This document shows, piece after piece, positions 6,679 to 26,071 of a stretch of 64,000 nt of DNA. The notes beneath the pieces are model-generated. The model did no database searches, was not told the origin of the DNA, and saw nothing but the letters and a program-made list of their open reading frames with translations. The first letter of the stretch is position 1; each line of letters begins with the position of its first letter. Where the stretch lies: NCBI GenBank assembly GCA_963662465.1, contig OY759599.1, forward strand, positions 6,272,001 to 6,336,000. Direction: 5' to 3'. Origin of the DNA: Desulfatiglandales bacterium. GTDB lineage: Bacteria > Desulfobacterota > DSM-4660 > Desulfatiglandales > Desulfatiglandaceae. The translations under genes and the position numbers were made by a program.

Positions 6679-6854
6679 CGTGCTCAAAATGTGGTTACGA
6701 ACTGAGTCTGATAAACCATATCTGAACATTTGGAAAACAGGGAAAGAAAATTTGACAAAAAATTGGGATTCGATAAATCAACCTTTTGAAAAAATTGAAC
6801 TTGCAAGGATACTTTTGCCAAATCTGCCACGCAAAGCGATCTGCTGTGCCTGCA

Positions 6855-7394: not shown

Positions 7395-7760
7395 TTGATG
7401 ATTAAGCACGTGGAAAGAGGTTTTACCCTTATTGAACTGATGATTGTTATTGCCATTATCGGTATTCTGGCGGCCATCGCCATCCCTCAATTTACTGAGT
7501 ACCTCAAAAGGGGGAGCAATGCTGCGGCCAAAACAGACGTGCGGACTGCGTCCATTGTGGAAGAGTCGTATTTTGTGGATAATCAATCATACGCCAACGA
7601 TGTGAATGCGCTCATCAGTTCAGGGTTCAGGGCGTCGGAGAATGTCACCCTGACGGTGAGCGGCGACAACCAGGGGTATACGCTCACCAGTTACCATGAC
7701 AACGGCGATGAGACCTATATCATTACAGGACCCCTGGGGAATTTTACCTTTATCAGATAA
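7395..7760 (+). CDS. pilA: Type IVa pilin 1 (112-aa mature form)
   Basis: Class III signal [23 protein letters not shown] with E5 and P22. Confidence 0.92.
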
Positions 7761-7879
7761 TGCGTCATTTCAATAAATAAAATATCAATTTAAAGCGAAA
7801 AGGAGGTGTTGCTTTTTTAAGGAGAGGGTGTTTTTTTTGAATCGTTTTAGTTAAAGGAAAACCAGAAAGGAGACTCAAA

Positions 7880-8254
7880 ATGTTGAGGAAAATTAAGAAA
7901 AATAGGAATGAAAAGGGTTTTACCCTTATTGAACTGATGATTGTTATTGCCATCATCGGTATTTTGGCGGCCATCGCCATCCCGCAGTTCACTGCGTATC
8001 GGGCCAGATCATATGACGCTTCGGCCGCATCGGACCTTAACAATGCTGCAAAGGCGCTGGTGGATTATGTGGGCAAGTATGAAGCGTATCCGACTAGCAT
8101 AGATTCTCTTAGCACCAATACCTCTAAAGGTGTGACCCTTACCGGGGCTGTTAATGTTGCGGATTGGGCCATGACGGCTACCCATGCGGAGGGCAACAGA
8201 AATTATTTTCTTAGTAACGCATCCGGCAGATTAACCTACTCAGAAAAAGAATAG
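7880..8254 (+). CDS. pilA: Type IVa pilin 2 (111-aa mature form), probable major pilin
   Basis: Basic leader, then [33 protein letters not shown]; strong AGGAG RBS. Confidence 0.93.
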   Translation: MLRKIKKNRNEKGFTLIELMIVIAIIGILAAIAIPQFTAYRARSYDASAASDLNNAAKALVDYVGKYEAYPTSIDSLSTNTSKGVTLTGAVNVADWAMTATHAEGNRNYFLSNASGRLTYSEKE

Positions 8255-8273
8255 GTTTTCACCTGCATGACCT

Positions 8274-10433
8274 TTATTCTAAAGGGTGAACCGGCATAAA
8301 AGGCGGTTCACCTTTTTTTTTGAGGGTGTCAGCCAGATCCCCATATTTTTTTGATCTGCATTGACATTCTGTGGCAAGAAGAGCGAGAAGATCTTTCCGG
8401 TATGAGAGGCGGAGGTTGTTCAGTGGCGCGATATCTTCCGCCATCCAATCCGTGAATGTTCTAATTCGTGCCGGGTTTCCATCAAAAATATTGAAAAAGC
8501 GGGTCATAGCTTGATCCTTTTTTTTCGCCATTCCCCTGGAAGCGTAGAGTTCTGCCATATAGAGCAGGGCGAGGGGATTATTCCCATCAAGGGCCAAAGA
8601 TTTTTTGAAATGAATCAATGCTTTTCCCCCCTGATTGTTCAATTTATAAGCAAGACCCAAGAATGTCATTGTTTTGGGGTCCAGGGGGTCCTTTTGGATG
8701 GCCTTTTTAAAATTTTGGATTGCCTCATCCGTCCTTCCCCGAGCCATGAGTAGAAAGCCCAGGGCGGCATAACCTGATGCAACCCTTGGGTTGCCCTTAA
8801 TGGCTTTTTGAAATTCTGATTCGGCTTCATCATAATGGCCGTTTTTCATCAACCGTATCCCTTTGTTGATGTGGGTTGGCAGGAAAAGGGGTTGAAATCG
8901 CAATGCCTGTTCATAATGAAATGCGGCCATTTTATCATCCCCCAATTTTTCATGGATTGCACCGATATTATGGTGGGTCCAGGCATTGGCTGCCAGATTG
9001 TTTTTATTCTCTTTGGAAAGGGCAATCATGTATTCTTCCAATGCTTTCAGGTGCAGATTCTTCTTTCCGTAAACCGAGCCCAGGTTGTTGTGGGGCCTGG
9101 GGAGGTCCGGGTATTTTTTGACGCAATCCAGGTATAATCTATAATCCGTTTGCCAGACCATGTTTCGCATAAATGTGCTGTGTCCCCAACTGATGGGAAT
9201 CAAGACCAGCAATGCCCATAAGACCCCTTTGATGATTCCCTTGTTGGAGAAAAACCGTATTCCTTTCAGGAGCAAAATGATGATGGGCGCAAAAAAGAGC
9301 ATGGAAGGAAGATAGTTTCGATGTTCAAAGATGAGTTCCACCGGGAAAATCGATCCCTCTATGAGATGATTGAGGAAAAAAAATATAATGCAAAAGCCTA
9401 TGAAAGGTCGTTTTCTGAAGGCGGTCAGGGTGATTCCCAGGAGTACCAGCATTGCAAGAATGGAAATGATGGTTGAGGGGGGGGTGAAAAAACCGGTGGA
9501 AAGAATTATATCATGCTCGAAGCATAATCGATTGGGCATGGGGTATAAGAGCAGGGAGATATAGAACAGGATCACTCTGGGTTCCGTCAACAACCTCTCC
9601 CCCAATGTAAACCCCCTGTTCCGGTAGCCGGAAATGAGGTTTTCCGGTTTGAAAATGGATGGTCCGGCCAGAATCCATGCAAGGGCGAGGCAGATAAGGA
9701 GGATAATGCCTAGGAAAAACGCATATCGTATGAGGTTTTTTCGGGTTGCGCCCTGGATGAGAAACAGATCAAAAACCAGGAGGATGACGGGCAGCATGAC
9801 GGCATTTTCTTTTGATGCGATGGCCATGAGGCCGCAGGTGAAGCATAAGAGGTAATAGATGAATTTGGATGAATTTCGTTGCGAAATTTTTCCTTTGAGA
9901 TAAAAATACATGGACATAATAAAGAACAATGCCGCCATGATGGCCATCCGTTGGACGATGTAGGTGACGGCTTGGGTCTGAATCGGGTTAAGCGCCCAGA
10001 AAACAGTGGAAAAAAGAGCGACGGCATAGGCGTCAGGTCCATATCTTATTTTCAAAATGGGCAAATTCAGGGTTTCAACGATAAAGAGAAAAAGAAAGAA
10101 AGAGGCCAGAAAATGGATGGCTAGGTTGACCATATGGTAGCCGTAAACATCGGTTCCACCGGAATAATAATTGAGTGCAAAGCTCAGGCATGCCGCAGGT
10201 CTGTATAGTTTTCCCTTTCCGTCCCAAGAGGCGTAAAAGGTTTTCTTGATATTGTCCATGCTCAATTCGGTGAGGTGGAGCGGTTGGTTTTTGAGAATAT
10301 TGTTTACATCGTCAAAATGCCATGACGCGTTAAACGTGTTGGAATAGGCGAGTAAAACGAGGACAAACAGGGAGATGAAGGCAAAGAGATTTTTCCGGCA
10401 TGGTGAGAGTGATATTTCGGGTTGCAGGTTCAT
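8274..10433 (-). CDS. TMTC-like GT-C membrane glycosyltransferase with C-terminal TPRs
   Basis: Loop WHFDD..., YRP, AVTYIVQR, SKENA and EHRNYLPS motifs; about 11 TM segments; multiple TPRs. Confidence 0.85.
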   Translation of the reverse strand: MNLQPEISLSPCRKNLFAFISLFVLVLLAYSNTFNASWHFDDVNNILKNQPLHLTELSMDNIKKTFYASWDGKGKLYRPAACLSFALNYYSGGTDVYGYHMVNLAIHFLASFFLFLFIVETLNLPILKIRYGPDAYAVALFSTVFWALNPIQTQAVTYIVQRMAIMAALFFIMSMYFYLKGKISQRNSSKFIYYLLCFTCGLMAIASKENAVMLPVILLVFDLFLIQGATRKNLIRYAFFLGIILLICLALAWILAGPSIFKPENLISGYRNRGFTLGERLLTEPRVILFYISLLLYPMPNRLCFEHDIILSTGFFTPPSTIISILAMLVLLGITLTAFRKRPFIGFCIIFFFLNHLIEGSIFPVELIFEHRNYLPSMLFFAPIIILLLKGIRFFSNKGIIKGVLWALLVLIPISWGHSTFMRNMVWQTDYRLYLDCVKKYPDLPRPHNNLGSVYGKKNLHLKALEEYMIALSKENKNNLAANAWTHHNIGAIHEKLGDDKMAAFHYEQALRFQPLFLPTHINKGIRLMKNGHYDEAESEFQKAIKGNPRVASGYAALGFLLMARGRTDEAIQNFKKAIQKDPLDPKTMTFLGLAYKLNNQGGKALIHFKKSLALDGNNPLALLYMAELYASRGMAKKKDQAMTRFFNIFDGNPARIRTFTDWMAEDIAPLNNLRLSYRKDLLALLATECQCRSKKYGDLADTLKKKGEPPFMPVHPLE
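8285..8321 (+). terminator. Rho-independent terminator for the pilin transcript
   Basis: GGTGAACCG-N10-CGGTTCACC followed by T9; lies within the 3' end of the convergent gene. Confidence 0.75.
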
Positions 10434-10760
10434 GTGTTTGTCTCCATGTCAAGACTTCAATGGATATTGCCGTAAAAACAATATAGCGCTTTCAATTTTC
10501 ATGTAATCCATAAAGGACATGGGGTCAAGGATGATCATTTCACCCTTTGCCGAAATAAATTATTATGAAAATCAATTTTATGCCCTGGTTTTAAAAAAAA
10601 CATGAATGCCTTGAGATTCTAAATGTCATGGATCCCGCTCATGGCCAATGTCATCGGGATTGTTTTTTCCGCCGTATTTGTTTATATTATTAATGATATT
10701 TGAACATTCCGGGCGCTAAAAAAAAGCTAAGGGTTCACATAAACCGAAGGGGTCGTAATT

Positions 10761-11686
10761 TTGAAGCTGGATATTGTTATCCCCATCTACAACGAAGAGG
10801 AAAACCTCCAGGTCCTGCACGACAGGTTGAAGCATGTATGTGACGGGTTGGAGGATGTTTCATGGCGGGTTATATATGTAAATGATGGAAGTCTCGACCG
10901 TTCACTTCATATGATGCTCGCCCAGGGTCGGGGGGATTCAAGGTTTACCACCATTGAACTTTCCCGCAATTTTGCCACCAGGCCGCCATTGCAGCGGGTC
11001 TGGCCTGTGCGGACGGTGATTGTGTGGTGACCATGGATGGCGATCTTCAGGATCCACCTGAAATCATCCCCGAATTGTTGGATTGCCGGCGGAAAGGGGC
11101 CGGCATCGTTAGAGCCCAGCGCCGCAGCCGCAAGGAAACCGGGGTGCGTCGATTGGGGTTCGATATGTTTTACAGGCTTTTTACGTGGATCAGTGATTTT
11201 CCCATTCCCCCCCATACGGGCATTTTCGGGTTACTTGATAGCCGGGCTGTGGATGAATTGAACAAGTTGCCGGAGAAAAACCGCTTTTTTCCCGGTCTCA
11301 GGAGTTGGGTCGGTCTTCGGCAGGAAGTGGTCTATTACGACCGGCAGGATCGGGCCGGCGGAAGCCCGAAGCAGTCCCTAAACAGGTTGATCCGTTATGC
11401 TCTGGATGCGATATTCAGTTTTTCCTACAAGCCCCTGAGAATTATGACGGGTGTGGGCGCGTGTATCAGCGCTCTTGGTTTTTTCCTGGCCTGTTTTTTC
11501 ATTATTAAGCGGCTCCTGGGCATTGAAATTGCTCCTACCGGGTTTACGACGTTAGTGACCGTGGTGCTTTTTCTGGGCGGCATTCAGCTTATGGCCATCG
11601 GGTTGTTGGGGGAGTACCTGGCTAGAATTTATGATGAAGTAAAGCAGCGGCCCCTCTTTATTATCAAGAACCGTCATGGTGTCTGA
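10761..11686 (+). pseudogene. GtrB/ArnC-like polyprenol-phosphate GT2, frameshifted near 10975
   Basis: The two ORFs 10761..11030 and 11024..11686 join into one GT2 (VIPIYNEE, VNDGS, SRNFGHQAA, DGDLQDPP, two C-terminal TMs) if one G is restored in TTTGCCAC. Could be a sequencing error. Confidence 0.85.
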
Positions 11687-11689
11687 TCC

Positions 11690-13762
11690 ATGAAACTTCT
11701 CACCGCAAAAACCGTGGCGCCGTATCTTTTGATCATCACGGCATTTGCCGTGTATCTCAGTACGATGGCCCCGACGGTTTATCTGGGTGACAGCGGCGAG
11801 TTGACCGCCGGGGCCTTTGCCCTCGGTGTTCCCCATGCCAGCGGATATCCTCTTTATTCCCTTCTGGGAAAAATTTTCTGCATGCTTCCCCTGGGAAATA
11901 TCGGGTTTCGGATGAATTTGATGTCGGGGGTTTTTTTAACCCTTACAGTCTGGTTGGTTTATGTGATCATCCTGAGGGTTACATCCTCTGCTTTGCCGGC
12001 GGTAACAGCAGCCCTTTATCTTGCGTTTACGCCGCTTTTTTGGTTCCAGTGCGTATCCGCGGAGGTTTATCCCCTGCATGTTTTTTTTGTGGCATTGATG
12101 ATAAAATTGCTCTGGGATTGGGATAAAAATGGGGAATTTCGTTTTTTGCTGCTTTTTGTTTTTGTGACCGGACTCAGTTTCGGCAACCACATGCAGACCG
12201 TGATGTTGGCGCCGGGGGTTTTATTCCTCATTATTTCCAGGGATAAAAAGGTGCTTTTTCGTTTCAGGTATTTCATTGTCATAACCCTGTTTTTTGTTCT
12301 TGCCCTTACCCTCTATCTCTATCTCCCCATCCGTACGGATGCCGGCGCTGCCATTCATTGGGGTGATCCCAATAGCCTTGATCGTTTTTGGGACCATATA
12401 ACGGCACGAACGCACAGGGGGAAATACATTTTCAGCAGCGGTCCTACGGAATACCTTTCGAGGACCCTGGCGGCATTGCAGCTCTTCAGCAAGCAATATG
12501 GCATCCTTCTTTTGTTTGCGTTTTGGGGGTGGCTGAAGCGTTTGCCCACGCGGTGGAAAATATCGGTTATCCTGGTGTTCATTTTTGATTTGCTCTATTC
12601 TGTTTTTTTGAATGTGATAGCGTTTAAATTTACGCCGTTTATGCTGCCCTCATTTGTCGTGATTGCCGTACTCATGGGGCTTGGTATTGCTGATGCGCTC
12701 CAAACGATGATGACTTATGATAAAATCAATATAAAACTTAAACGAACTGTTCAATTTGCCTGTTGCCTGCTGCCGGCAATCCCCTTTTTTTCCGGGTATG
12801 GCCTATGCAATCAAAGCTGTAACTACATGGCCTACGAGCATGCCGTAAATATTTTCAGGACCCCCGAATATGCCGGTACTGTTTTCCTGGATGGGGACAA
12901 TAACATCTTTCCAGCGGTTTATGGGCGGTTGGTCGAAGGAATGGGGGATGATATTACCGTATACGATCGGCTCAACCTTATTTTCAGATGGTCCGTCAAT
13001 GATGCGTCGTTTAGTGTTAAGGGAAAATGGAACGAAATTAAAACCCTTGTGGAAAAGAAAATCATTGAAGAAAAAGCGGAAAAAGGGGTCTATTATGCGG
13101 TTTTTGACCCCTTTTCCATTCCATTGCCGAGTGAATTTCGTGCAATCCCCTATGGCGTTTTGTGGAAAGTTATTCTTCGGGGGCCACCGGCAAAGACGGA
13201 TGTTTCAATTGGTTTGTGGGATTACTACTATAAAGAAAGCATTCACGACCCCTTCCAGAAGGATTTCATGAATCGAAATATACGTGCGCATTATTATTTT
13301 TTAAACTATGCCCAAGACCTGTGGCAGGCGGGTCGGATTGGTGAGAGCCTGAAGAATTTGGAAATGGCATCCAGAATTGCCTACGATGACGCATCCGTTC
13401 ACTCAAACATTGCGATTTTTTTTATCAAGAGACGCCTTTTTGATGCAGCGCAGCAAGAACTTGAAAAAGCAATGCTTTACCAAGGGCATGCTAATTTGAG
13501 CGGCATCTTCAATAACTGGGGCTATTTTTACCATGAGAAAGGTGAATATGAAATGGCTGCGGCCCATTTGCAAAAGGCTTTGCAGGAAAGTCCTAATAAT
13601 TTAAGTTATCTAAATAATATTGGGTTTGCCCTGTATGAGGCGGGTAAAAAGGAAGCGGCACGAGAGGCTTTTGAAAAATCGCTGACCATTAACAAAGATC
13701 AGCCGGACATAAAGGCCTTCATGAAAAAGAAAGGCCTCCAAATAGGAAAAAGAATTGACTAG
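11690..13762 (+). CDS. DUF2723 (TMEM260-like) GT-C glycosyltransferase with TPRs
   Basis: GDSGEL...LGVPHASGYPLY and AEVY motifs, multi-TM, GDN motif, C-terminal TPRs. Confidence 0.85.
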   Translation: MKLLTAKTVAPYLLIITAFAVYLSTMAPTVYLGDSGELTAGAFALGVPHASGYPLYSLLGKIFCMLPLGNIGFRMNLMSGVFLTLTVWLVYVIILRVTSSALPAVTAALYLAFTPLFWFQCVSAEVYPLHVFFVALMIKLLWDWDKNGEFRFLLLFVFVTGLSFGNHMQTVMLAPGVLFLIISRDKKVLFRFRYFIVITLFFVLALTLYLYLPIRTDAGAAIHWGDPNSLDRFWDHITARTHRGKYIFSSGPTEYLSRTLAALQLFSKQYGILLLFAFWGWLKRLPTRWKISVILVFIFDLLYSVFLNVIAFKFTPFMLPSFVVIAVLMGLGIADALQTMMTYDKINIKLKRTVQFACCLLPAIPFFSGYGLCNQSCNYMAYEHAVNIFRTPEYAGTVFLDGDNNIFPAVYGRLVEGMGDDITVYDRLNLIFRWSVNDASFSVKGKWNEIKTLVEKKIIEEKAEKGVYYAVFDPFSIPLPSEFRAIPYGVLWKVILRGPPAKTDVSIGLWDYYYKESIHDPFQKDFMNRNIRAHYYFLNYAQDLWQAGRIGESLKNLEMASRIAYDDASVHSNIAIFFIKRRLFDAAQQELEKAMLYQGHANLSGIFNNWGYFYHEKGEYEMAAAHLQKALQESPNNLSYLNNIGFALYEAGKKEAAREAFEKSLTINKDQPDIKAFMKKKGLQIGKRID

Positions 13763-15575
13763 GCAGAATGACAGGCTTGTGGTTTTTGTTATATTTTTTG
13801 TGGCCGTTGCCCTGCGTCTCCTTCATTTTTCTTCAAGTTCCGAAAATCCCCTCCTGTATATGCCCGTGTTGGATGAACGCTATTATATTGATTTAGGCAA
13901 GGATATTGCCGCAGGTCACTGGGTCGGAGAGGACCGAGTTTTTTTTATGGACCCGCTCTACGGCTATTTTCTCGGGGTTATATTTGGACTTTTTGGGGAC
14001 AACCTCACCACCGTCAGAATTATTCAGATTCTTTTTGACGCCCTCAATGTACTGCTTATCTATACCATAGGGAAAAAGGTGTTGAGTCGGTTTGCCGGTA
14101 TTTCAGGCGCCTTGTTCTATGCCTTGTACCCGGTTGCTTTATTTTATACCCTCTTGATCCTGAAAACCACCCTTTCCATAACCGCATCCCTGGCCTTTGT
14201 TTTGTTGCTGTTGGTTGCGCTGGAAAAAAGCCGGAAGATGCATTGGTTAAACCTTGGACTTCTGGCCGGCGCCATGACTTGTCTCCGAGCAAATTTTGTT
14301 CTGGTGGTGCCCTTGACCATCCTTTTTTGCCTTTTCTTGAACAAAAGCCCGTGGCGAGTCGTCATGGGACAGTCGTTTCTTCTTTTTGCCGGATTGGTTA
14401 CCGTGCTTTCAGTGGGTGCCTTGCGAAATTACCGGGTCAGCAACGATATTGTGTTTTTCAACAGCCAAGGTGGCCGTTTGCTTTACAGTTCGAATAACCC
14501 GGAAAATATCACCGGCCTTTATAAGACGCCATCATTCGCCCGTCCCGATCCTGAAGCCTCGGAGCGCGATTTTCACAGGGAAGCTGAATTCAGGCGGGGT
14601 GAGGTTCTTAGCCAGAGACAAGTTTCCAGGTACTGGACAGGCAGGACCATTGGGTTTTTGGTTAATAATCCAGTTATGATACCGACCCTTCTGTACAATA
14701 AATTCAAAAGAACCCTGGGGAATTGTGAAATTGCCAATAACCATTCTTACTATACCGCCTCAATTTTTTCTCCATGGATAAGATGGCCAAAATATTGCTT
14801 TGCGTTTGCACTGGCTCTGGGGGTGCCGGGTTTGGTAATGGGTATTCGAAGAAACAGGGAAATTGCCGTGTTTCTGATACCGGTTTTGACGGTGCTTGCA
14901 ACGGTCCTTGTTTTTTATACCTCATCCCGCTTAAGAATGCCCCTTGTGCCGTTTTTATTGATTGGAGCAGCCATTTTTCTAAACATTACCATGGAGTGGA
15001 TAAAAAAAAAAGAAACGCCAAAAATTCTGGTGGCGTTACTCTCCATGGTTATCCTTGGCTGGCTATCTTTGTCGGTTCCCTGCCCGAAAGAACCGGGTCG
15101 GGAACAGTTTATTCTTGCCAAGGCCTACCTTCGGCAGGGAGATCTTCATAAGGCCAGGCAATTGGCCTTGAAAGGAAGAAAGGCTTTCCCTTCTCAGACG
15201 AGATTCCTAATTTTATTGGGAATGATCGCCATATCAAGCGATCTCCCGGATCAGGCCATTCAACATAACCGGCGTGTATTGGCCATTGAACCTGAAAACG
15301 TTGATGCCCATCACAATATGGGTGTGGCGTATTTATCCATGAAAAAATCGGAACAGGCCGTCACATGGTTCCAAAAGGCCCTGGCCATTGAAGAGAGAAC
15401 GGAAACGCTGTTCTGGCTGGCAAAGGCATATGAGGAAGGTGGTCATTATTCATCAGCTAGAAAAAAATACGACAAATTCCTCAGCGCTTCCAAGAAGGCA
15501 GATCCGCTAAGGGGAACGGCAATTGACCATTTGGAAAGCCTTAACCGGTTACAGAGGCGTTATGGAAAAGAATGA
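13755..15575 (+). CDS. PMT_2/GT39-like membrane glycosyltransferase with TPRs
   Basis: N-terminal TM then LDERYY acidic loop, PLYGYFLG, RLRMP; C-terminal TPRs. Confidence 0.8.
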   Translation: MTRQNDRLVVFVIFFVAVALRLLHFSSSSENPLLYMPVLDERYYIDLGKDIAAGHWVGEDRVFFMDPLYGYFLGVIFGLFGDNLTTVRIIQILFDALNVLLIYTIGKKVLSRFAGISGALFYALYPVALFYTLLILKTTLSITASLAFVLLLLVALEKSRKMHWLNLGLLAGAMTCLRANFVLVVPLTILFCLFLNKSPWRVVMGQSFLLFAGLVTVLSVGALRNYRVSNDIVFFNSQGGRLLYSSNNPENITGLYKTPSFARPDPEASERDFHREAEFRRGEVLSQRQVSRYWTGRTIGFLVNNPVMIPTLLYNKFKRTLGNCEIANNHSYYTASIFSPWIRWPKYCFAFALALGVPGLVMGIRRNREIAVFLIPVLTVLATVLVFYTSSRLRMPLVPFLLIGAAIFLNITMEWIKKKETPKILVALLSMVILGWLSLSVPCPKEPGREQFILAKAYLRQGDLHKARQLALKGRKAFPSQTRFLILLGMIAISSDLPDQAIQHNRRVLAIEPENVDAHHNMGVAYLSMKKSEQAVTWFQKALAIEERTETLFWLAKAYEEGGHYSSARKKYDKFLSASKKADPLRGTAIDHLESLNRLQRRYGKE

Positions 15576-16311: not shown

Positions 16312-16321
16312 CTGCCAATAA

Positions 16322-18616
16322 TTGACGAATATGACTGGAAGCAAACAGAAAGTTCAAAGCCTTGTTGTCATCTGTTTTCTTGTGGTAATCGCAATCGCTT
16401 TTTTCGGCAAAGTAATTTATTCAGGGGATACGCTTTATGGAAGCGACTTTCTGCTCTATTTTTACCCCATAAAACGTTTTGTCTATGATTATTTTTGTAC
16501 AAATGGGTCCCTTCCTTTTTGGAATTCCAATCTTTTTTCAGGAACGCCATTTATTGCCAATATTCAAGCATCCATGTTTTACCCTTTAGGGTTTCTGTAT
16601 TACCTGCTCCCCACCGAAATCGCCTATCTCTATGCCACCATCCTTCACTGTATACTCGGCGCTGTCTTCATGTACATGCTTATGCGAACCGTATCCGTGT
16701 CTAAAGCAGGTGCCTTTGTATCGGGTTTTATCTTCATATTTAACGGCTATTTTATGGCACATCTGTATGCTGGTCATCTGACTTTTGTGCAGAATTACAT
16801 ATGGATCCCCCTTATCTTTCTTTTCCTGATTCGCTTTATGAGAACAGGAAGTTTTAAATATGCAGTTGTAGCAGGCATGGGATTGGGTATTCAAATTCTG
16901 GGAGGATTTCCCCAAATCGCCTTTTATACAATCCTGGCAATCATGGCATATGTCCTGTTTTTTGCGGTAGGTCGCATACGAAAGGGAAAACCTGAAAGCG
17001 CCATGGGTTCAGCTATGGCCGTAGTCATCATATTATGTGTCGGTTTCGGTCTGGCGGCGGTTCAAGTGCTGCCGACTCTTGAGTTTTCAGGGCTTTCAGG
17101 CAGGGCCGGTGGTGTCAACTATGGATTTGCGACTTCCGATTCTCTGGATTTTGGAGATCTTTTCGCTTTTTTATCTCCTGAAATTTTTGGAAATGCCATT
17201 GATCATACTTATTGGAAAAGTCCTGAGAGATGGCATTTTTGGGAAACATGTGCCTATGTGGGCCTATTGCCGCTGCTGCTGATTTTTGTGAAAATTGAGA
17301 GCGGGCGATTGCGTCGCTTGAGGCTGTTCTGCATAATCTTGATTTGTGGTGCCATGTTTGTTGCCTTTGGCAAAAACAACCCTTTTTACCCAATGGTATA
17401 TCAATTGCCGGGTTTCGGAAGTTTTCGCATTCCAGCACAAATTATCTTTTTGTACATATTCGGTATTGCAGTTTTGGCGGGAATGGGTCTGGACCGGTTG
17501 GGGGATTCGGATGTTATGCTTAGCAAGTGGTTTGCACCTTTCATTTTCTTTGCAGGCGGCCTCTTGTTTTTTTTGCTGATTGGGCTTTATTTTTTTCCAA
17601 ATGCTTTATTTTATTATCTTTTTAAAACTTTTTCTTCCGGAGATGTTTCAAATATCAATATGGGAGAGCTTTATGTCAAAACTTGTCTTTCAGTTCAAAA
17701 AAGTATCCTGGTTCTATTTGGATCGGTTTTGCTGATTTTGTTTAGAAAAAGTCAAAAGCTCAACCTGCGCGTTTTCAAGGCAATGGCCATAGCGATTATT
17801 TTTGTGGATTTATGGCTGTTTTCAGGAGGATTCATCAGGCCCTGCCAAATTGAAACCGGTCCGGTCAAAAAAGAACTTATTTCAGGATTGAATAAATGCC
17901 CTGCCCAAGGGAGGGTGGCGGCCTGGGGCGACTTGTTCATGCCCAATGACGGCCTCAGGTATGAATTTCCATCTATATTAGGTTATGATCCCCTGATCTT
18001 GAAGCGGTACATAAAATATTTTGAAACGAGCCGGAATCGGCCTTCCAATGACCATGTGATTGTTCTTTTTCAGATGAAGGACCCGGGTGCAAAATTATTA
18101 CATCTTCTTAATGTAACGCAAGCCGTCCCCAAAAAAGAAATCATATTTGTTGAGAACAATCCCATCCCATACGCAAATTTTGTGGGCCATGCCCTTGTGA
18201 AAAACACCGACGAGGTCCTTCCATTTATGAAAAGTGAGGCCTTTGATCCATCAAAAATGGTTATTTTTGAACGGGAATATGCCCCTGGATGCCTGCCTGA
18301 AGCGGGAACGGAATCCCCAGAAGGGTCATTTACCATTATGGCTTATGAAAACCATGCCATACGGTTGAAGACGTCATCTGACAGGGCCGGTTTTCTGGTA
18401 CTCAGCGAAATATTTTATCCGGGATGGCAGGCAACGGTTGATGGGGAAAAAGTGCCTGTTTTTCGTGGAAACTATATCTTTCGTGTGATTCCACTAAATG
18501 GGGGAGAACATGACGTGGTCTTTGAGTTTGTCTCCCGCCCCTTTCAGATTGGGGCCATCATCTCCTCACTGACTTTTTTGGTTTCCCTGCTGTTTTTCGT
18601 GAGGCGAAAAAGATAA
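16322..18616 (+). CDS. YfhO-family GT-C membrane protein
   Basis: GSDF..YFYP, PFWN...SGTP, FRIPA and C-terminal LSEIFYPGWQATVDG. Confidence 0.85.
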   Translation: MTNMTGSKQKVQSLVVICFLVVIAIAFFGKVIYSGDTLYGSDFLLYFYPIKRFVYDYFCTNGSLPFWNSNLFSGTPFIANIQASMFYPLGFLYYLLPTEIAYLYATILHCILGAVFMYMLMRTVSVSKAGAFVSGFIFIFNGYFMAHLYAGHLTFVQNYIWIPLIFLFLIRFMRTGSFKYAVVAGMGLGIQILGGFPQIAFYTILAIMAYVLFFAVGRIRKGKPESAMGSAMAVVIILCVGFGLAAVQVLPTLEFSGLSGRAGGVNYGFATSDSLDFGDLFAFLSPEIFGNAIDHTYWKSPERWHFWETCAYVGLLPLLLIFVKIESGRLRRLRLFCIILICGAMFVAFGKNNPFYPMVYQLPGFGSFRIPAQIIFLYIFGIAVLAGMGLDRLGDSDVMLSKWFAPFIFFAGGLLFFLLIGLYFFPNALFYYLFKTFSSGDVSNINMGELYVKTCLSVQKSILVLFGSVLLILFRKSQKLNLRVFKAMAIAIIFVDLWLFSGGFIRPCQIETGPVKKELISGLNKCPAQGRVAAWGDLFMPNDGLRYEFPSILGYDPLILKRYIKYFETSRNRPSNDHVIVLFQMKDPGAKLLHLLNVTQAVPKKEIIFVENNPIPYANFVGHALVKNTDEVLPFMKSEAFDPSKMVIFEREYAPGCLPEAGTESPEGSFTIMAYENHAIRLKTSSDRAGFLVLSEIFYPGWQATVDGEKVPVFRGNYIFRVIPLNGGEHDVVFEFVSRPFQIGAIISSLTFLVSLLFFVRRKR

Positions 18617-18624
18617 ACGCCGCA

Positions 18625-20979
18625 TCATTCTCGTTTTGGGGTTTTGTTCCCATGTAGAAGACGGGGTCCCATGAAGCGAAAAATGACGGAGGCAAGAACG
18701 ATAAGGAGCATCAGGGCGGTTGCGGCAATGCCGATTTTTATGGAAAAGGGGTCAAATACCAGCCTTACCCTATGGTTTCCCTGGGGAATTTTGACGGTTC
18801 TGAAAAGGTAATTTCCTCTCAATATGGTTTCCGGTCGACCGTCAACAAACGCCTTCCAGCCGGGATAGTAAACTTCGCTCAAAAAGAGGTAGCCGGGATT
18901 TTTAGCGTGAAGGGAGATTTCAATTTCGTCCGCTCTGTAAGAAAGGATCTCCGTTTCGTTTTCGCGACCATTTTTTGCGGGAAGATCCGGGTTGTGCGGT
19001 AGAGGATGGGCATCTTCCTTTTCAAGCAGTACCCGTTTTAAAGGATCAAACCCGGGATCGGCCATACGACTCAGGATTTCATCCTTCGGGACGATTTCGT
19101 GTTCGGAAACGATGAAGGTGCGTGGGAGGTATGAATTTCTAAGTGAGTACCTGCGATCCGAGTGAGACAGTTCATATTTTACATTAAGCAGGTCCATGAA
19201 AACGCTTTTTCCGTGAGGCACATAATAGAATAATACGGCGCCGGGCCCTAACAGATTCTTGTTGTAGGCGCGGATATACTCATAATAACGATGAAGATAA
19301 AGGGGGTTATACCCCGCTACGGTCTGGTATCCTAAATACATTTCCAAATTAGGGCTCATGTTGTGGGGTAGGCTGCCGACGCGGAATATGCTTTGATCCC
19401 GGGCCAGGCTTTGGTTAAGACCGTTTTTGATGGTTTCAACATTACCATATACCTTGTCGCCGTAACGGATTGCGCCTCGGTTGAGATAGCCTAAATCGAA
19501 TAACAAGAGTAAACCCAACAGGGCGGCTGCAACCCTGGTACTCAGAAGACCCTTTAGAAACAGCAGAATAATGAGCAGAATGGCAGCGCTCAGCAGGGTG
19601 AAAATATGAAACCCGGAACCGATGATTTTTATGGCATATGCCAGCTTTTCGGGAATGGCCTCGTCCAGCACAAAGGGTGAGAATAACCTGAGGATCAGCG
19701 ATTGATCCCTATGAAATAGGATATCCATTGAAACCAGGAGGAGCACGGGAATAAAAAAAATGGTTATGCGTTTCAGAACGGATGACTTTGGAAGTCCAAA
19801 AAGGCCGTCCATGCCTTTGCCCGCCAGCAGGCTGAACGCAAACACCCACAGGTAAATAATTTTGGCAGGTGCTCGGATTCTATCGAAACCGGGAAGCAGG
19901 TAAATCAGCCGGTAAAGGGGGGTGTTGGCGCCCAGCGCCAGAAAAAAAGAAATCAGGGCCAGTATCCCTGCAAAAAGTGTAATTTTTCGGTTGTCGAAGG
20001 GCTTAAAGGAAATGAAGCACATTAGAAACAGGGGAAGGATGCCCACGTAAAGGTTGTATAAGGGGATGCTCCATGGGGTATTTGAAACCCAGAAATCGTT
20101 GTTGGCATATTTCCCGAAAAAATCGGGTATGAACGTAGTGATAATCCCTTCGGGCGGGTAAGAACCCAGGGTGACCAGATTGTAAGCGTCAAATGCGGAA
20201 CGGACGGACAGGTTAATGAATCCAAAGGCCGGCACAAGCTGTATGGCGGCAATTCCGGTCCCCACAACAAAAAACAGGAGAAGGATGCTGATTGGCCGTA
20301 ATATCCTTTTAATTTTCAGCCCTTCATAGGACGTCAAGCAAACACAAAAAAGAGATGCTGCCATCAATGTGTAAAGAGCATCCTGTGGGGAACCTGATAG
20401 AATCTGGATGCCCCAGAAAAGCCCCGCCAAGGCCAAATGGAAAAACGGGTTTCCGGGCTTAATTGCCCGGTTCAGGAAATAAATGACCAGCGGCAGCCAG
20501 ACATAAGCCTGTACCCGGAACATCTGGCCGTCATAAAGGGTGGCCATGATAAGGCCATTGCAGGTGAAGATGGCGGCGGCAACGAAACTTCCCGCAGCGC
20601 CGGTGTTCAGGGACCGCATGAGAAGATACATGAAAAGAGCCGCTAAAAGCATATGGAAAAACATGGTGTAGCCGAATGCCGTTGCAGGGGCCATCAACCA
20701 GAAAAGGATATCAAGGGGATAAAAAATGGTGGATTCAAAATGGGCCCAAAACGGCATGCCGCTGAAGATATACGGGTTCCAGAATGGAATTGAATTGTGG
20801 TTATGGAATTCGTTGTAAAGGAACTGCTTCATCCCCTGGTAAAAGGCAACGAAATCGGAGCCGTACAGGAGATGACCGTTGATAATGACGCCCCTGAAGA
20901 TGAACAAGCAAAAAAATGCCAGAACTCCGATCATTAAAAGATCTTTTTTGCCGGGGTAGATGGTTGTCCTATTTTTCAA
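18625..20979 (-). CDS. YfhO-family GT-C membrane protein (divergent paralog)
   Basis: GSDF, PFWNPY..SGMP, IRAPAK and LSEVYYPGWKAFVDG. Confidence 0.85.
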   Translation of the reverse strand: MKNRTTIYPGKKDLLMIGVLAFFCLFIFRGVIINGHLLYGSDFVAFYQGMKQFLYNEFHNHNSIPFWNPYIFSGMPFWAHFESTIFYPLDILFWLMAPATAFGYTMFFHMLLAALFMYLLMRSLNTGAAGSFVAAAIFTCNGLIMATLYDGQMFRVQAYVWLPLVIYFLNRAIKPGNPFFHLALAGLFWGIQILSGSPQDALYTLMAASLFCVCLTSYEGLKIKRILRPISILLLFFVVGTGIAAIQLVPAFGFINLSVRSAFDAYNLVTLGSYPPEGIITTFIPDFFGKYANNDFWVSNTPWSIPLYNLYVGILPLFLMCFISFKPFDNRKITLFAGILALISFFLALGANTPLYRLIYLLPGFDRIRAPAKIIYLWVFAFSLLAGKGMDGLFGLPKSSVLKRITIFFIPVLLLVSMDILFHRDQSLILRLFSPFVLDEAIPEKLAYAIKIIGSGFHIFTLLSAAILLIILLFLKGLLSTRVAAALLGLLLLFDLGYLNRGAIRYGDKVYGNVETIKNGLNQSLARDQSIFRVGSLPHNMSPNLEMYLGYQTVAGYNPLYLHRYYEYIRAYNKNLLGPGAVLFYYVPHGKSVFMDLLNVKYELSHSDRRYSLRNSYLPRTFIVSEHEIVPKDEILSRMADPGFDPLKRVLLEKEDAHPLPHNPDLPAKNGRENETEILSYRADEIEISLHAKNPGYLFLSEVYYPGWKAFVDGRPETILRGNYLFRTVKIPQGNHRVRLVFDPFSIKIGIAATALMLLIVLASVIFRFMGPRLLHGNKTPKRE

Positions 20980-21111
20980 GATTACCTCAGGTTGTCCGGG
21001 TTGTTTTGTTAAGATGAGCTGTTTTCATCTTTGTTTACTTCACTAGCGGTGAATGTTATGATTACATCGAATTTGAAAGAAAAAGTCGCTTGTTGTATGT
21101 TACGATTACAA

Positions 21112-21762
21112 ATGAAAAATTTCAGGTCCATATTTATCCTTCTTGCCCTGGTTGCCATCCTTTTGACGGCGGTCTGGATCAGGGTGTTTTTTGGTTCCAT
21201 GCAGGCCTATGAGAAGGGCGAAATCCATCTTAAAGCAGTTGAATATATAAAAGCAATTACCTTTTTTGATCGTTCTATTCACTGGTATGCGCCGTTCAAT
21301 CCCTATGTTCATAAATCAGCGGAGCGTCTCTGGGAGATAAGCAGGAATGCAGAGAAGAGGGGGGATATTCGTCTGGCACTCATCGCAGCCAGAACGCTCA
21401 GGCGGGGTTTTGTGGCGGCAAGGAGCTTTTACATCCCTGACCGGAACTGGATTGAGCGGTGTGATCTCAGAATTCATGAATTGGTGTTTGTGGAACAGGC
21501 GCAAAGGGGATTGAAAATTGCGGAAAAGCCTCTAGAACCGGTCTCTGTTCTTAATCATCCCCAGGTCAAAGCGCCGGATCCCATGTGGAGCACTATTTTG
21601 CTTGTGGGTCTTTTGGGATGGATCGGGACTGTCATTGCCTTTATCATGAGGGGATTTAGGATACCCCGGGATTCAATGGGTTTTAAGCCTTTGTGTTTTC
21701 AATGGATCTCTCTTTGGGCTGCCTTTTTTTCAATGTGGATTTTTGGGATGGTGAATGCTTGA
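21112..21762 (+). CDS. Conserved hypothetical membrane protein (N-terminal TM, TPR-like helices, two C-terminal TMs)
   Basis: Clear paralog of 54901..55578 (DRSIHWY.PFNPYVHKSA, AARSFY); start chosen at MKNFRS. Confidence 0.75.
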   Translation: MKNFRSIFILLALVAILLTAVWIRVFFGSMQAYEKGEIHLKAVEYIKAITFFDRSIHWYAPFNPYVHKSAERLWEISRNAEKRGDIRLALIAARTLRRGFVAARSFYIPDRNWIERCDLRIHELVFVEQAQRGLKIAEKPLEPVSVLNHPQVKAPDPMWSTILLVGLLGWIGTVIAFIMRGFRIPRDSMGFKPLCFQWISLWAAFFSMWIFGMVNA

Positions 21763-21777
21763 TGAAAGGATAAGGGG

Positions 21778-23187
21778 GTGAATATACCGAATCGGCAATT
21801 TTCCAATGGCGAACGGGGACCCAGAAAAAACCTTGGCTACCACGATGAAGTGGATCGTCTCTATGGTTTTCTGGTTCCGGAGAATGTCCGCGTGTTGGAA
21901 TTGGGTTGCAGCAAGGGTCGATTATTGTCCCGGCTTCATCCGAAAAAAGGCGTCGGTATTGATATTGATCACCATAAGATTCATTCAGCGCGTTCGCTTT
22001 TCAAGCACAAACCGGAGCTCCGGTTTCTCCACGGGAATGTGGAAGATTTTGATTGGTCGGATGAAGATCCTTTCGACTATATCATTGCTTCCGACCTGAC
22101 GGCTTATCTGCAGGATATCCAAAAAACGCTGGGTCGCCTTCACCAGGTATGCACTTCCCATACGAGAATCATTGTTTCTTTTCACTCCAACCTCTGGCGG
22201 CCGATTTTTTATTTTGCAGTCTTAATGGGCCGAAAAAAGCGTATCCAAAAATCTAACTGGTTGTCTGTGAGTGATATCAAGAACCTGCTTTCTCTCTCGG
22301 GCTTTGCCGCCGTATCCAGTGGAGGGCGGACGCTCTTGCCCTGCAAAATACCGGTTTTGACCCCGGTCATGAACAGGTTTGCAGCCAAATTGCCCTTCAT
22401 CGAACACCTGTGCCTCAATTGGTATGTTGTGGCCCGCCCTACACCCAGACCTGTTAACCGGGAACCATCGGTTTCAGTTTTAGTGCCTACGCGAAACGAA
22501 AAGGGAAATATTGACGCTATTTTCTCAAAAACGCCAACAATGGGTCGATGGACTGAACTCGTTTTTGTGGATGGCAATTCCGGCGATGGTACGGTCGAGG
22601 CCATTGAACAGGGCATTTTGCGATACAAGGATGGTTTTAAGCGAATTCTCCTGTTGAAACAAGCCGGCAAGGGTAAGGGGCAAGCGGTTCGTCAGGGTTT
22701 TGACCAATGCCGGGGCGAAATTTTGATGATCCTCGATTCGGATTTAACCATGCCTGCTGAAGAACTGCCCAAATATTATGAGGCGCTCGTTCAGGGTCAT
22801 GGTGAGTTTATCAACGGGTGCCGTCTGGTTTACCCTATGGGAGAAGAGGCCATGCGTTTTTTGAATATGGTGGCCAACTATGCTTTTGGACACCTTTTTT
22901 CATGGTTTCTGAATCAGACGGTGAAAGATACGCTTTGCGGCACAAAAGTTCTGTGGCGTCGGGACTATGTTCAAATTGATGCCAATCGGTCCTATTTTGG
23001 TGACTTTGATCCTTTTGGCGATTTTGATTTGCTTTTTGGCGCTTCCCGTCTCAACTTGAAGATTATCGACATGCCGATCCGATACCGTAAGCGGACCTAT
23101 GGCGACATCAAAATAGATCGTTTTAGAGATGGTTTGCTATTGCTTAAGATGTGCTGGATCGCATTTTGTAAGCTGAAACTGGCTTGA
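21778..23187 (+). CDS. Bifunctional SAM methyltransferase-like / GT2 glycosyltransferase
   Basis: N-terminal VLELGCSKG; C-terminal VPTRNEKGN, VDGNS, LDSDL, DTLCGTK, DPFGDFDLLFG. Confidence 0.88.
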   Translation: MNIPNRQFSNGERGPRKNLGYHDEVDRLYGFLVPENVRVLELGCSKGRLLSRLHPKKGVGIDIDHHKIHSARSLFKHKPELRFLHGNVEDFDWSDEDPFDYIIASDLTAYLQDIQKTLGRLHQVCTSHTRIIVSFHSNLWRPIFYFAVLMGRKKRIQKSNWLSVSDIKNLLSLSGFAAVSSGGRTLLPCKIPVLTPVMNRFAAKLPFIEHLCLNWYVVARPTPRPVNREPSVSVLVPTRNEKGNIDAIFSKTPTMGRWTELVFVDGNSGDGTVEAIEQGILRYKDGFKRILLLKQAGKGKGQAVRQGFDQCRGEILMILDSDLTMPAEELPKYYEALVQGHGEFINGCRLVYPMGEEAMRFLNMVANYAFGHLFSWFLNQTVKDTLCGTKVLWRRDYVQIDANRSYFGDFDPFGDFDLLFGASRLNLKIIDMPIRYRKRTYGDIKIDRFRDGLLLLKMCWIAFCKLKLA

Positions 23188-23202
23188 CCCATGTGAAGAA
23201 AA

Positions 23203-24780
23203 ATGGAGAGGTTCATGCGTTATCCGGGCTTTGATCTTTTCAACCATGCGCATCTTTGGGTCGTTTCCGCTTTTTTCCTATGCTTTTTGGTTCTGGGCCT
23301 GAATGTTTTTAAAGATTATGGTATGTCTTGGGACGAGGCCCATCAGCGTACCGTCGCCATGCTTGTTTCAAATTATGTTTTGGAGAATGATAACACACTC
23401 CTTAACACGCCCCATCCAAAATACCATGGTCCGGTGGTCCCCGTGGTTCTATTTTCATTGGAAAAACTGTTGGGTCTCGAAGCATCCAGAACAAAAGTAT
23501 TATTATGGCATTTTGGAAATTTCCTGTTTTTTTTCCTCGGCGTGCTTTTCTTTTATTTTCTATGTGTTCATAGATTTAAGAGTTGGAAGATCGCTCTGCT
23601 GGGTGCCCTTTTTTTAATTCTCAGCCCAAGAATTTTCGCCCATGCATTTTTCAACCATAAGGATCTCCCATTTCTATCCGTTTTTATCATTTGCATTTAT
23701 TCGCTTATCCGGCTTCTTGAGAAAAAGACAACCCCAAGGATATGTGTTCATGCTTTGCTCTGTGCAATCCTCATCGACATTCGCATCCCGGGTGTGATTC
23801 TTCCCTCTTTAACAGTTTTCCTCCTGGGGATGGACTGTTTTCTTGCGCCGGACAGGAAGCAAGCCTTTTTTATCTTTATGAGAGACTTTTCGGTGTTTTG
23901 CTCTGCAACCATTATTTTTGTAGTTTTGTTATGGCCCAGTTTATGGGAAAATCCCCTTGGGGAATTTATCAATGCATATAATTTCATGAAGAAGATTCAA
24001 TGGGGTGGGACGGTTCTCTATTTGGGGCGGTTCATTGAGAGCAATAATCTACCGTGGCATTACATTCCAGTATGGATTTCCATAACAACCCCGTTATTGT
24101 ATATGATTTTTTTCCTGTTAGGGCTTTTCTTCATGGGCGCTCATTTTTTTAAGTTTCCCCTGGAATTTTACCGAAAAAGAAAAATAGATCTCATTTGTTT
24201 CATATGGTTTTTTCTCCCCATTGCCATGATCCTCATCCACAAGTCCACTATTTTTGATGGCTGGCGCCATCTCTATTTTATTTATCCGGCCATGATTTTA
24301 ATTTCACTCAATGGCCTGGTGTGTTTGTGGAAGTTTTTGAACAACATTAAAAACCGTAAGGCCTTTGTGATTTTATCCTCTTTGGTCATCATGCTCGTTG
24401 TTTTTTCCGTTACAAAGACGGCCTATCTGATGACCAGAGATCATCCTTATCAAAATGTGCATTTCAACTTTCTTGCAGGCAGCGATAAGCGGCATCGCTT
24501 TGAGCTTGATTATTGGGGGCTGTCTTACAGGGAGGCGTTGGAATACATTTTGGATAACGATAGTAGAGACATGATTAAAGTTCAAGTTGCCAATCCGCCA
24601 GGTGAACTCAACAAAGAACTGCTCACGGAAAGGGCGAAACAAAGGTTGTCTTTTGTAGAAAGCCAGGGGGATTACTTCGTAACCAACTATCGATGGCATC
24701 CCAATGATTATTTGGGGAAAGAGTTGTTTTCAATACATGTGGGCAGTGAAAAGATTAACGCCGTATATGAATTACGCTAG
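23203..24780 (+). CDS. PMT_2/GT39-like membrane glycosyltransferase
   Basis: DYGMSWDE acidic loop, FNHKDLP, PWHY, GWRH and DYWG motifs; multi-TM. Confidence 0.8.
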   Translation: MERFMRYPGFDLFNHAHLWVVSAFFLCFLVLGLNVFKDYGMSWDEAHQRTVAMLVSNYVLENDNTLLNTPHPKYHGPVVPVVLFSLEKLLGLEASRTKVLLWHFGNFLFFFLGVLFFYFLCVHRFKSWKIALLGALFLILSPRIFAHAFFNHKDLPFLSVFIICIYSLIRLLEKKTTPRICVHALLCAILIDIRIPGVILPSLTVFLLGMDCFLAPDRKQAFFIFMRDFSVFCSATIIFVVLLWPSLWENPLGEFINAYNFMKKIQWGGTVLYLGRFIESNNLPWHYIPVWISITTPLLYMIFFLLGLFFMGAHFFKFPLEFYRKRKIDLICFIWFFLPIAMILIHKSTIFDGWRHLYFIYPAMILISLNGLVCLWKFLNNIKNRKAFVILSSLVIMLVVFSVTKTAYLMTRDHPYQNVHFNFLAGSDKRHRFELDYWGLSYREALEYILDNDSRDMIKVQVANPPGELNKELLTERAKQRLSFVESQGDYFVTNYRWHPNDYLGKELFSIHVGSEKINAVYELR

Positions 24781-24914
24781 GATTTTTTTTATGCGAGTTC
24801 AAAAGAAGTATCCCCTGCAATGATTGACTGGTTTGCATTTAAATACTACAATTTCGAAATCTTAAGGATGTAGAGGGTGGCGTTTTATGCCTCGAATTAT
24901 TGATTGGAGTTCAT

Positions 24915-25799
24915 ATGGAAGAAATGAAGGATTCGGATATTTCCGTCATCATCCCGGCCCACAATGAAGCCCATAATATCGGCAAGATAGTGTCTCGGAT
25001 CCAGGCGCTTCATCCCGATTTTGAAATCATTGTCATTGATGATGGTTCAACGGACGGCACAGGAGAATTGGCCGGAGAAGCGGGGGCGATCGTTTACAAG
25101 CATCCCTATAATATCGGAAACGGCGCCGCTATCAAGAGCGGCATCAGGATTGCCTCCGGCCAAGTGCTGGTATTTATGGATGCGGATGGACAGCATGATC
25201 CGGCGGACCTGGATCAACTGCTTCAGCATTTTCCGGAATTCGATATGGTGGTGGGCGCCAGGCCCGGGGGAACGCAGGATTCAAAGATCAGGGCCTTGGG
25301 AAACCGGATATACAATCATCTGGCATCATACGTGACGAATTTTCCCATCCGGGATTTGACATCGGGTTTCAGGGCTATTAAGTCGGATCTGGCGCGAAAT
25401 CTGCTTTATCTTTTGCCCAATACCTACTCTTATCCCACAACGATGACGTTGGGAATCCTCAGATCCGGAAAGAGTGTAAAATATGTGAGCATCAATGTTC
25501 AGTCGAGAAAAACGGGTAAAAGCGAGATTCGGATTATTAAGGATGGCGTCAGGTTTTTTATGATCATTGTCAGGATATGTACCTTTTATTCACCTCTTAA
25601 GGTTTTTCTTCCCACGAGTATGGGTCTTTTTCTGCTGGGTCTTGCCTATTATACCTATACCTTTCTTACTTCCGGTCGATTTACCAACATGAGTGCGCTT
25701 TTGTTTACCACCTCCATTCTCATCTTCATGCTGGGCTTGATTTCCGAGCAGATCAGCCAGATGCGCTTTGAAAAGAGTGAAGGGGATCGGTTTGTTTGA
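24915..25799 (+). CDS. DPM1-like polyprenol-phosphate GT2 (copy 1)
   Basis: IIPAHNE, IDDGSTD, DADGQH, DLTSGFRA, two C-terminal TMs. Confidence 0.9.
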   Translation: MEEMKDSDISVIIPAHNEAHNIGKIVSRIQALHPDFEIIVIDDGSTDGTGELAGEAGAIVYKHPYNIGNGAAIKSGIRIASGQVLVFMDADGQHDPADLDQLLQHFPEFDMVVGARPGGTQDSKIRALGNRIYNHLASYVTNFPIRDLTSGFRAIKSDLARNLLYLLPNTYSYPTTMTLGILRSGKSVKYVSINVQSRKTGKSEIRIIKDGVRFFMIIVRICTFYSPLKVFLPTSMGLFLLGLAYYTYTFLTSGRFTNMSALLFTTSILIFMLGLISEQISQMRFEKSEGDRFV

Positions 25800-26071
25800 A
25801 TCCAAACTTGCTGGAAGATTTCTACCAGCCCGGCAGGGATTGAATCGAAAAATGCGACCGGAGGATTTTTACGCTTCAAAAAGTTGCCCGGAAGAAAAGG
25901 GTGCATTCAATTGATGAAACCCCGGGTAAAAGCGCGATACTGGAAGACCCTCAGGTCAGGGGGCCGGGTATCTTGGGGATGGTAAAGGCTTAGCGTGTTT
26001 CAAACACGATTCTGCTGTCCACGGAATTCTCGTATTAATGTCAAAAGATTTGGGCTTTTTTCCGGATCGAT

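Follow-up and report, generated by a model that had tools for sequence, protein, structure and literature searches.

What are six membrane-embedded glycosyltransferases doing directly beside two pilin genes of a Desulfatiglandales bacterium? The locus occupies positions 7395-25799 of a 64,000-nucleotide stretch (contig OY759599.1 of assembly GCA_963662465.1, 6,272,001 to 6,336,000), which we call the window and by which features are numbered; the host genome is complete (100%-complete) at 8.16 Mb. The locus holds two type IVa pilin genes, six multi-pass proteins of the glycosyltransferase C type (GT-C), three family 2 glycosyltransferases (GT2), two methyltransferase domains and one unnamed protein. 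An earlier note on this DNA had listed these genes and all are present, although it omitted the unnamed protein, a 220-residue three-helix membrane protein at ~21100-21762. The data show directly which genes are present, which families and folds they belong to, that acidic residues are conserved and that the genes are linked to those of the pilus. Our explanation for them, to which we give a probability of about 0.58, is a variable pilA-locus cassette that glycosylates pilins, with pilin as a main substrate; we are less confident that all six GT-Cs act in one chain. The locus is real and conserved, and likely a richer version of the GT-C pilin glycosylation known from TfpW of Pseudomonas.

The principal evidence is the company that these genes keep in related bacteria. 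A search with pilA2 gave matches in 92 of 123 genomes of the class, from which 100 pilA loci in 79 genomes besides the host were taken, weak hits and most contig-edge hits being left out. A GT-C gene lies within 3 kb of a pilA-type gene in 74 of the 100 loci, with 14 lacking one and 12 cut by short sequence; per genome, 65 of the 79 are linked, six are unlinked and eight could not be scored, against a rough chance of linkage of ~1% (12 GT-C genes x 8 kb / 8.16 Mb). The earlier note had named an unconserved link to pilin as grounds for rejecting its proposal, and the survey found the link conserved. Since such genes flank pilus genes in most related genomes, they likely glycosylate the pilus. 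The commonest gene after pilA in the class is an ortholog of the TMTC-like gene described below (40/100 loci), convergent in 27 cases and co-oriented in 13, so that this adjacency survives inversion. In 21/100 loci the same slot is filled by other GT-C families (TMEM260-like in 3, PMT_2 with tetratricopeptide repeats (TPRs) in 5, distant TMTC-like in 10 and a 570-residue PMT_2 family in 3).

Linkage also extends beyond the class. Among 76 TMTC-like loci drawn from genome records, which partly overlap the class set, those labelled Desulfobacterota comprise 31 linked to pilA, 9 unlinked and 13 unscored, and reach Desulfobulbales and Syntrophales. PF11028, the TMEM260-like family, occurs in 25/123 class genomes, lying within 10 kb of pilA in 17, unscored in 7, and weak and unlinked in 1. 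At the level of the phylum it was found in 44/301 genomes, and of 40 loci taken from 37 of these, 15 lie close to pilA (12 of them directly next to it), 10 are no more than 1 kb from pilB, 9 are unlinked and 6 unscored. In a study of cable bacteria, pilA is described in a cluster with genes for sugar-modifying enzymes and TPR proteins (PMC10580974), and in two loci from named cable bacteria in our set (L139 and L188) this TMTC-like gene comes next after pilA; that study, in its account of the cluster, takes the TPR genes for protein-interaction factors, without assigning them to GT-C. Directly 3' of pilA in another genome (G077, L093:13264-14526) is a 420-residue protein with ~8 membrane helices and no Pfam match, possibly another pilin-modifying family.

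The candidate acceptors, pilA1 (7395..7760, plus strand; 112 residues mature; PF07963, E 1.6e-10) and pilA2 (7880..8254, plus strand; 111 residues mature; PF07963, E 2e-11), are the sole two major-type pilins found in the genome. Their heads contain 21% and 22% Ser/Thr respectively, compared with an 11% background. The remaining pilus machinery is encoded elsewhere, as pilMNOPQ with a PilB-like ATPase, pilC and pilT; no protein of the genome passed the family cut-off for PilB, and control genomes likewise gave 0 passing. The cassette sits 1.26 Mb from pilR, which precedes pilA in 53/100 related loci. A comparison of pilin with TMTC-like protein for co-evolution gave rho 0.21 (26 loci, 325 non-independent pairs). 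N-glycosylation of pilins was considered and rejected: N-X-S/T occurs 130 times in 81 related pilins where 96 are expected, which is too weak an excess, and an STT3 domain was not found in the genome search. Nor do TMEM260-like genes go with a GPGG motif in the pilins (13/16 vs 51/69). A separate arrangement, seen in L102, L104, L122, L124 and L125, has long pilins (180-220 amino acids) followed by genes for 250-350 amino acids, ABC-transporter parts included, with no GT-C.

The gene closest to the pilins encodes the TMTC-like GT-C (719 amino acids; 8274..10433, minus strand), convergent with pilA2 across a 19 bp gap and ending in TPRs, an architecture like that of TfpW. All of the acidic loop motifs that had been proposed for the locus (FDD, GDSGE, LDE, WDE and GSD) were located and are conserved in alignments; here it is FDD at residues 40-42, with both Asp (D41-D42) kept in 45/46 aligned relatives. 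The GT-C family labels and folds assigned in the earlier note were supported in general, but two fell short: the membrane part of this protein has no Pfam match at E 2, DUF1736 (PF08409) included, and the 525-residue protein discussed below, taken alone, is under the PMT_2 cut-off (E 0.0037). The structural model of the TMTC-like protein has a mean pLDDT of 66.8, and its top 20 structural matches are all chains of the GT-C fold, the best at Z 14.6 with a root-mean-square deviation of 4.8 over 289 aligned residues, while unrelated chains drop to Z 6.4; a eukaryotic DUF1736 cluster ranks 25 in Atlas with a score of 0.91. Searches of solved-structure sequences with this and the 525-residue protein gave nothing useful, Foldseek returned weak GT-C rows only, profile comparisons between families were uninformative, and the TMTC-like protein had no match among plasmid sequences.

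Compared with human TMTC1-4 (GT105), the protein shares the layout of a GT-C domain with TPRs and, matched by eye to Table 4 of PMC7801869, the conserved motifs M1 DD (D41-D42), M2 YRP (Y77-R78-P79) and M4 KE (K208-E209). DUF1736 goes undetected. For the other motifs, again judged by eye, R162 appears to lack the Asp of M3 RxD, EH to stand for the DW of M5 and PxxP (M6) to be missing, while an EHRNY near the last loop may correspond to the M7 ERxxY. Prokaryotic homologs are mentioned in that paper without being characterised there. A further source describes TMTC and TMEM260 enzymes as adding one mannose at a time to beta-strands, and has the TPRs as proposed recruiters of the substrate (PMC11292533).

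The nearest functional precedent, likened by description and not by sequence, is TfpW, encoded beside pilA in Pseudomonas aeruginosa group IV strains: a GT-C with a DD motif in its first periplasmic loop, ~11 membrane helices, C-terminal TPRs and a lipid-phosphate-sugar donor, by which pilin Ser/Thr is glycosylated (bioRxiv 10.1101/2020.04.19.049825); phages are reported to be blocked by modification of this type (bioRxiv 10.1101/150227). The Pseudomonas system as described employs a single enzyme, co-transcribed with pilA, whereas six from four families are found here and the TMTC-like gene is on the opposite strand. The loop-4 motif YX6PFX7P of TfpW is present in 0/46 TMTC-like and 0/25 distant-family proteins, although the shorter YX6P occurs in 36/46. 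A DprE1-type domain (PF04030, the one domain searched) was not found in the 100%-complete genome and is present in 3/14 control genomes, which makes D-arabinofuranose, the donor sugar of TfpW, unlikely. As these two TfpW features fail, we do not file the locus as a TfpW member, even though it would work alike. TfpW, together with the streptococcal pairs of GT2 and YfhO proteins considered below, also means that 'undescribed system', as the earlier note had it, is too strong, although a description of this particular gene combination was not found in the literature searched, most subscription papers lying outside that search. A second TMTC-like gene of the host (G000:C1:4823049-4825193; 33% identity, FDG for FDD) is located near type II secretion genes and a polysaccharide cluster.

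The TMEM260-like enzyme (690 amino acids with TPRs; 11690..13762, plus strand; PF11028, E 3e-33) has a clearer counterpart. Its residues 17-437 align with human TMEM260 (GT117; PDB 9rql) at E 1.9e-32, a homology across the whole membrane part, and the Asp of its GDSGE motif (residues 33-37), invariant in 17/17 sequences, is D34, aligned with the catalytic D52 of a human enzyme that is inactive as D52A (PMC10214176); both proteins end in TPRs. Unlike the human enzyme as characterised there, this one is bacterial and pilus-linked, and is accompanied by the unnamed membrane protein (220 amino acids; 21031..21762, with ATG at 21100, plus strand). The latter has an anchor helix, TPR-like helical hairpins and two C-terminal helices, and matches no Pfam family; there are 260 relatives, and its model (pLDDT 85.5) matches generic helical repeats only. 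PF11028 is found in 18/20 genomes with the 220-residue protein and in 7/103 without it, and we regard that protein as a candidate partner of the TMEM260-like enzyme.

Human TMEM260 acts on IPT domains, within the sequon Px6Px3Px2GGx3T (bioRxiv 10.64898/2026.09.21.753134). Five matches to this sequon occur among all open reading frames of the genome longer than 200 amino acids, and all are in two IPT/TIG repeat proteins with N-terminal export-like sequences (G000:C1:3201623-3203812 and 5092917-5096984). We take the sequon to resemble the general TIG pattern, and the genome contains 18 TIG domains in five proteins; Big_9 domains were not found. The cassette might accordingly be a general kit for glycosylating surface proteins that happens to be parked at pilA, its TMEM260-like enzyme acting on IPT/TIG domains and its GtrB and YfhO proteins on linkers rich in Ser/Thr, while most of the six would use pilin little or not at all. 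Consistent with this, a same-genus genome (G010) holds both enzyme and sequon, and the YfhO-family proteins PgtC2 and PgfM1 are reported to glycosylate many membrane proteins (bioRxiv 10.1101/2024.05.05.592596). We nevertheless think such a kit unlikely: PF11028 occurs in 4/18 TIG-positive and 21/105 TIG-negative genomes of the class, which is no co-occurrence, the sequon is also present in two genomes where PF11028 was not found, and the tight linkage to pilA would go unexplained. Without class-wide co-occurrence of TIG and PF11028, pilin stays the better class-wide guess at a substrate.

Four further GT-Cs complete the set. The first YfhO-type protein (764 amino acids; 16322..18616, plus strand) scores 45 bits against PF09586, where the cut-off is 28.5, and keeps the Asp of its GSD motif in 12/13 aligned relatives; a close ortholog was found in 15 genomes, 14 of which also have PF11028. 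The second (784 amino acids; 18625..20979, minus strand; 73.6 bits) is convergent with it; the best PF09586 stretch is the last 80 residues only. The pairing of these proteins with a GtrB-like GT2, with two YfhO genes per cluster and O-glycosylation outside the cytoplasm, recalls streptococcal GtrB/PgtC2 and PgfS/PgfM1/PgfM2 (bioRxiv 10.1101/2024.05.05.592596), in which GT2 and YfhO proteins carry out protein O-glycosylation. Our locus differs from the systems described there in its Gram-negative host and in the TMEM260-like and TMTC-like enzymes and methyltransferases joined to it, and it misses the NCBIfam equivalog cut-offs for Pgf proteins (PgfS, 166/500 bits with a partial first GT2; PgfM2, 20.7/1500 bits). 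The two PMT_2-type enzymes comprise one with TPRs (606 amino acids; 13755..15575, plus strand; PF13231, E 2.9e-14, and TPR families), in which LDE is kept in 4/11 alignment rows, these being all the rows that cover the motif, and one without (525 amino acids; 23203..24780, plus strand), in which D44 of WDE is invariant in 44/44. Of the 44 members of the latter alignment, 35 match PF13231, and two relatives carry the source name 'glycosyltransferase family 39'.

These four enzymes bring in a second alternative, that the GT-Cs decorate lipopolysaccharide (LPS) or a different polymer of the envelope with side sugars, in the manner of the Gtr and ArnT systems, and that pilA is a hotspot for variable surface genes. 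The PMT_2 protein with TPRs has a weak ArnT match (E 2.2e-7), the first GT2 is GtrB-like, YfhO homologs are reported to glycosylate teichoic acids (bioRxiv 10.1101/2024.05.05.592596), and the surrounding island includes Wzx, GT4 and sugar-nucleotide genes, insertion sequence (IS) elements and a duplication. We nonetheless hold it to be quite improbable, given that the two enzymes most tightly linked to pilA belong with protein-acting families and carry TPR tails, that the distance to pilA is mostly no more than a few hundred bases, whichever the orientation and across several orders, and that a separate ArnT-like gene is found among LPS-type genes elsewhere in the genome.

The GT2s support the lipid-phosphate-sugar donors that had been suggested for the locus, in matching GtrB, ArnC, AglJ and DPMS, matches that do not fix the sugar. 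The first (10761..11686, plus strand; PF00535) is a predicted polyprenyl-phosphate sugar synthase of GtrB/PgfS type, its PgfS score of 166 bits of 500 coming from the C-terminal part. In the assembly it contains a one-base frameshift, but contigs from 3/3 sequencing runs (two samples of one study, possibly the source) hold the missing base at full depth; the gene is therefore intact and the frameshift an assembly error. Its ortholog in L039 matches GtrB-type sll0501 (E 3e-76). The second forms part of a methyltransferase-GT2 fusion (469 amino acids; 21778..23187, plus strand; PF13847 and PF00535) with no membrane span predicted from hydropathy. The last (24900..25799, plus strand; PF00535, E 4.7e-32), which has two C-terminal helices and a near-identical paralog at 55650-56534 arising from a duplication, resembles AglJ (120 of 325 bits) and the ArnC and DPMS structures (E ~1e-13). 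The other methyltransferase (15523..16311, likely start 15562, plus strand; PF08241, E 3.5e-18) is a class I S-adenosylmethionine (SAM)-dependent enzyme predicted to be cytoplasmic, and the five nearest relatives found at pilA loci (E < 1e-25) all share their locus with YfhO. Methylation of the pilin heads themselves had been suggested. No export signal is seen on the methyltransferases, however, and SAM is cytoplasmic, so that the sugar or its lipid-linked donor is the likelier target. Neither a GtrA nor a PF03706 flippase gene is present in the cassette, and two GtrA domains are encoded elsewhere in the genome.

The resemblance to AglJ raises a third alternative, in which the AglJ-like GT2 and then the products of the GT4 and GT2 genes at 32307-46141 assemble an oligosaccharide on cytoplasmic polyprenyl monophosphate, a Wzx-like protein flips it, and a single GT-C passes it en bloc to pilin, a route of the kind used in haloarchaeal glycosylation. 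AglJ gives the last GT2 its best score, and related loci have this gene in the company of GT4s and Asn-synthase-like genes; AglB, STT3 and PglB are among the best structural matches of the TMTC-like model, and TfpW has been proposed to serve as polymerase and oligosaccharyltransferase (bioRxiv 10.1101/2020.04.19.049825). Against this, the AglJ score is far under its cut-off, there is the failure to find STT3, and structural scores for oligosaccharyltransferases and protein O-mannosyltransferases are tied. Moreover, in 21/22 loci the last GT2 is accompanied by the 570-residue GT-C, and that usual partner was not found in the host genome, all of which leads us to rate this route as very unlikely. 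The absence of a PglL/TfpO-type enzyme, as the earlier note had put it, is true of the cassette and the window, which lack any Wzy_C-domain gene, but not of the genome, which has five elsewhere; used as queries, these five proteins gave 0 matches in the 100 pilA loci.

Returning to stepwise glycosylation of pilins, we infer the chemical steps, sugar, acceptor, flippase and anti-phage role as follows. The GT2s would probably charge polyprenyl phosphate with single sugars, and these would receive their methyl groups from the methyltransferases while still on the cytoplasmic side. A flippase encoded outside the cassette would move the lipid-linked donor across the membrane, where the TMTC-like and TMEM260-like GT-Cs would probably transfer sugars in the periplasm to Ser/Thr of membrane-anchored pilins, their TPR tails recognising the folded head of the pilin. 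Lengthening or varying the glycan would then fall to the YfhO and PMT_2 enzymes, which might instead act on different surface proteins, and the resulting modification could protect against phages.

How far these steps form one pathway is a separate matter, and the single sequential pathway of six enzymes that the earlier note envisaged is not borne out. Counting GT-C families in 44 long linked loci gives 15 loci with one, 13 with two, 11 with three and 5 with four, and four genomes of the same genus (L039, L046, L116 and L123) display three cassette types. Certain genes do travel together: the GtrB-like GT2 is accompanied by a TMEM260-like gene in 8/8 loci and by YfhO in 7/8. The 570-residue PMT_2 family, present in 35/100 loci, shares a locus with a TMEM260-like gene once. 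The six enzymes are a mosaic of modules that come and go, not one fixed pathway. A second type of pilin locus (L034, L036-L038, L040, L065, L074 and L094) combines a 570-residue PMT_2-family GT-C with pilin, an AglJ-like GT2, GT4, radical SAM, DUF218 and epimerase genes.

Several observations weigh against pilin as the main substrate and temper our confidence in it. The counts of linkage come from related genomes that are not independent, and six GT-Cs is far above the number in most relatives. TMTC-like loci with labels other than Desulfobacterota are mostly unlinked to pilA (2 linked, 15 unlinked, 6 unscored), indicating that the family is not pilin-specific; the host's own second TMTC-like gene is not linked to pilA, and nine of the 40 TMEM260-like loci across the phylum are unlinked. 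The ten loci near pilB (L267-L274, L276 and L277, from other Desulfobacterota families) run ribF, a flippase-like gene (TIGR00374), the TMEM260-like gene, (aroE), pilB, pilT, pilC and a sensor kinase, with pilA next in 2/9 extended loci, and this position among housekeeping genes (ribF, aroE) may be inherited synteny. Ser/Thr richness, which the earlier note had counted as evidence, is 23% in both linked (n=81) and unlinked (n=10) pilins (p 0.94) and was rejected as a marker of linkage. The human TMEM260 sequon is absent from PilA1 and PilA2, all its matches being in the IPT/TIG proteins, and the wider island also carries GT4, Wzx and sugar-nucleotide genes.

If pilins are indeed the substrate, the TMEM260-like and TMTC-like enzymes of bacteria would gain a target that is small and easy to express, and the mechanism of two disease-linked human enzyme families could be tested in a bacterial host. 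In many Desulfobacterota, among them cable bacteria and syntrophs, type IV pili would be glycosylated by swappable cassettes, which would matter for resistance to phages, attachment to surfaces and how pilin conductivity is read. A bolder version, which we advance tentatively and consider doubtful, is that Desulfobacterota have working counterparts of TMTC and TMEM260, the two domain-specific O-glycosyltransferases of animals, as interchangeable pilin-modifying enzymes, that here both, with the YfhO and PMT_2 proteins, build a methylated glycan stepwise in the periplasm, and that the TMEM260-like enzyme, helped by the unnamed membrane partner, also reads the human IPT sequon. Were that last point true, such specificity would predate eukaryotes.

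All cassette genes are on the plus strand except the TMTC-like gene and the second YfhO gene, so that the cassette is not a single operon. At 32307-46141, mostly on the minus strand, lies a second glycan cluster with GT4s, a GT2, a methyltransferase, a Wzx-like flippase, a UDP-GlcNAc 2-epimerase, an oxidoreductase-acetyltransferase fusion and a PMT_2-like gene split at ~45400, a split that contigs show to be real. A 5-kb duplication links 24915-30056 with 55650-62803 (95-99% identical), each copy having a truncated PMT_2-like remnant; the second is broken by a 2-kb IS, which recurs inverted at 51380-53385. On the other side, 5' of pilA1, positions 1-7000 contain a group II intron-type remnant, toxin-antitoxin-like pairs, Rpn-type transposase-like genes and AAA/DUF4143 fragments, all named by eye.

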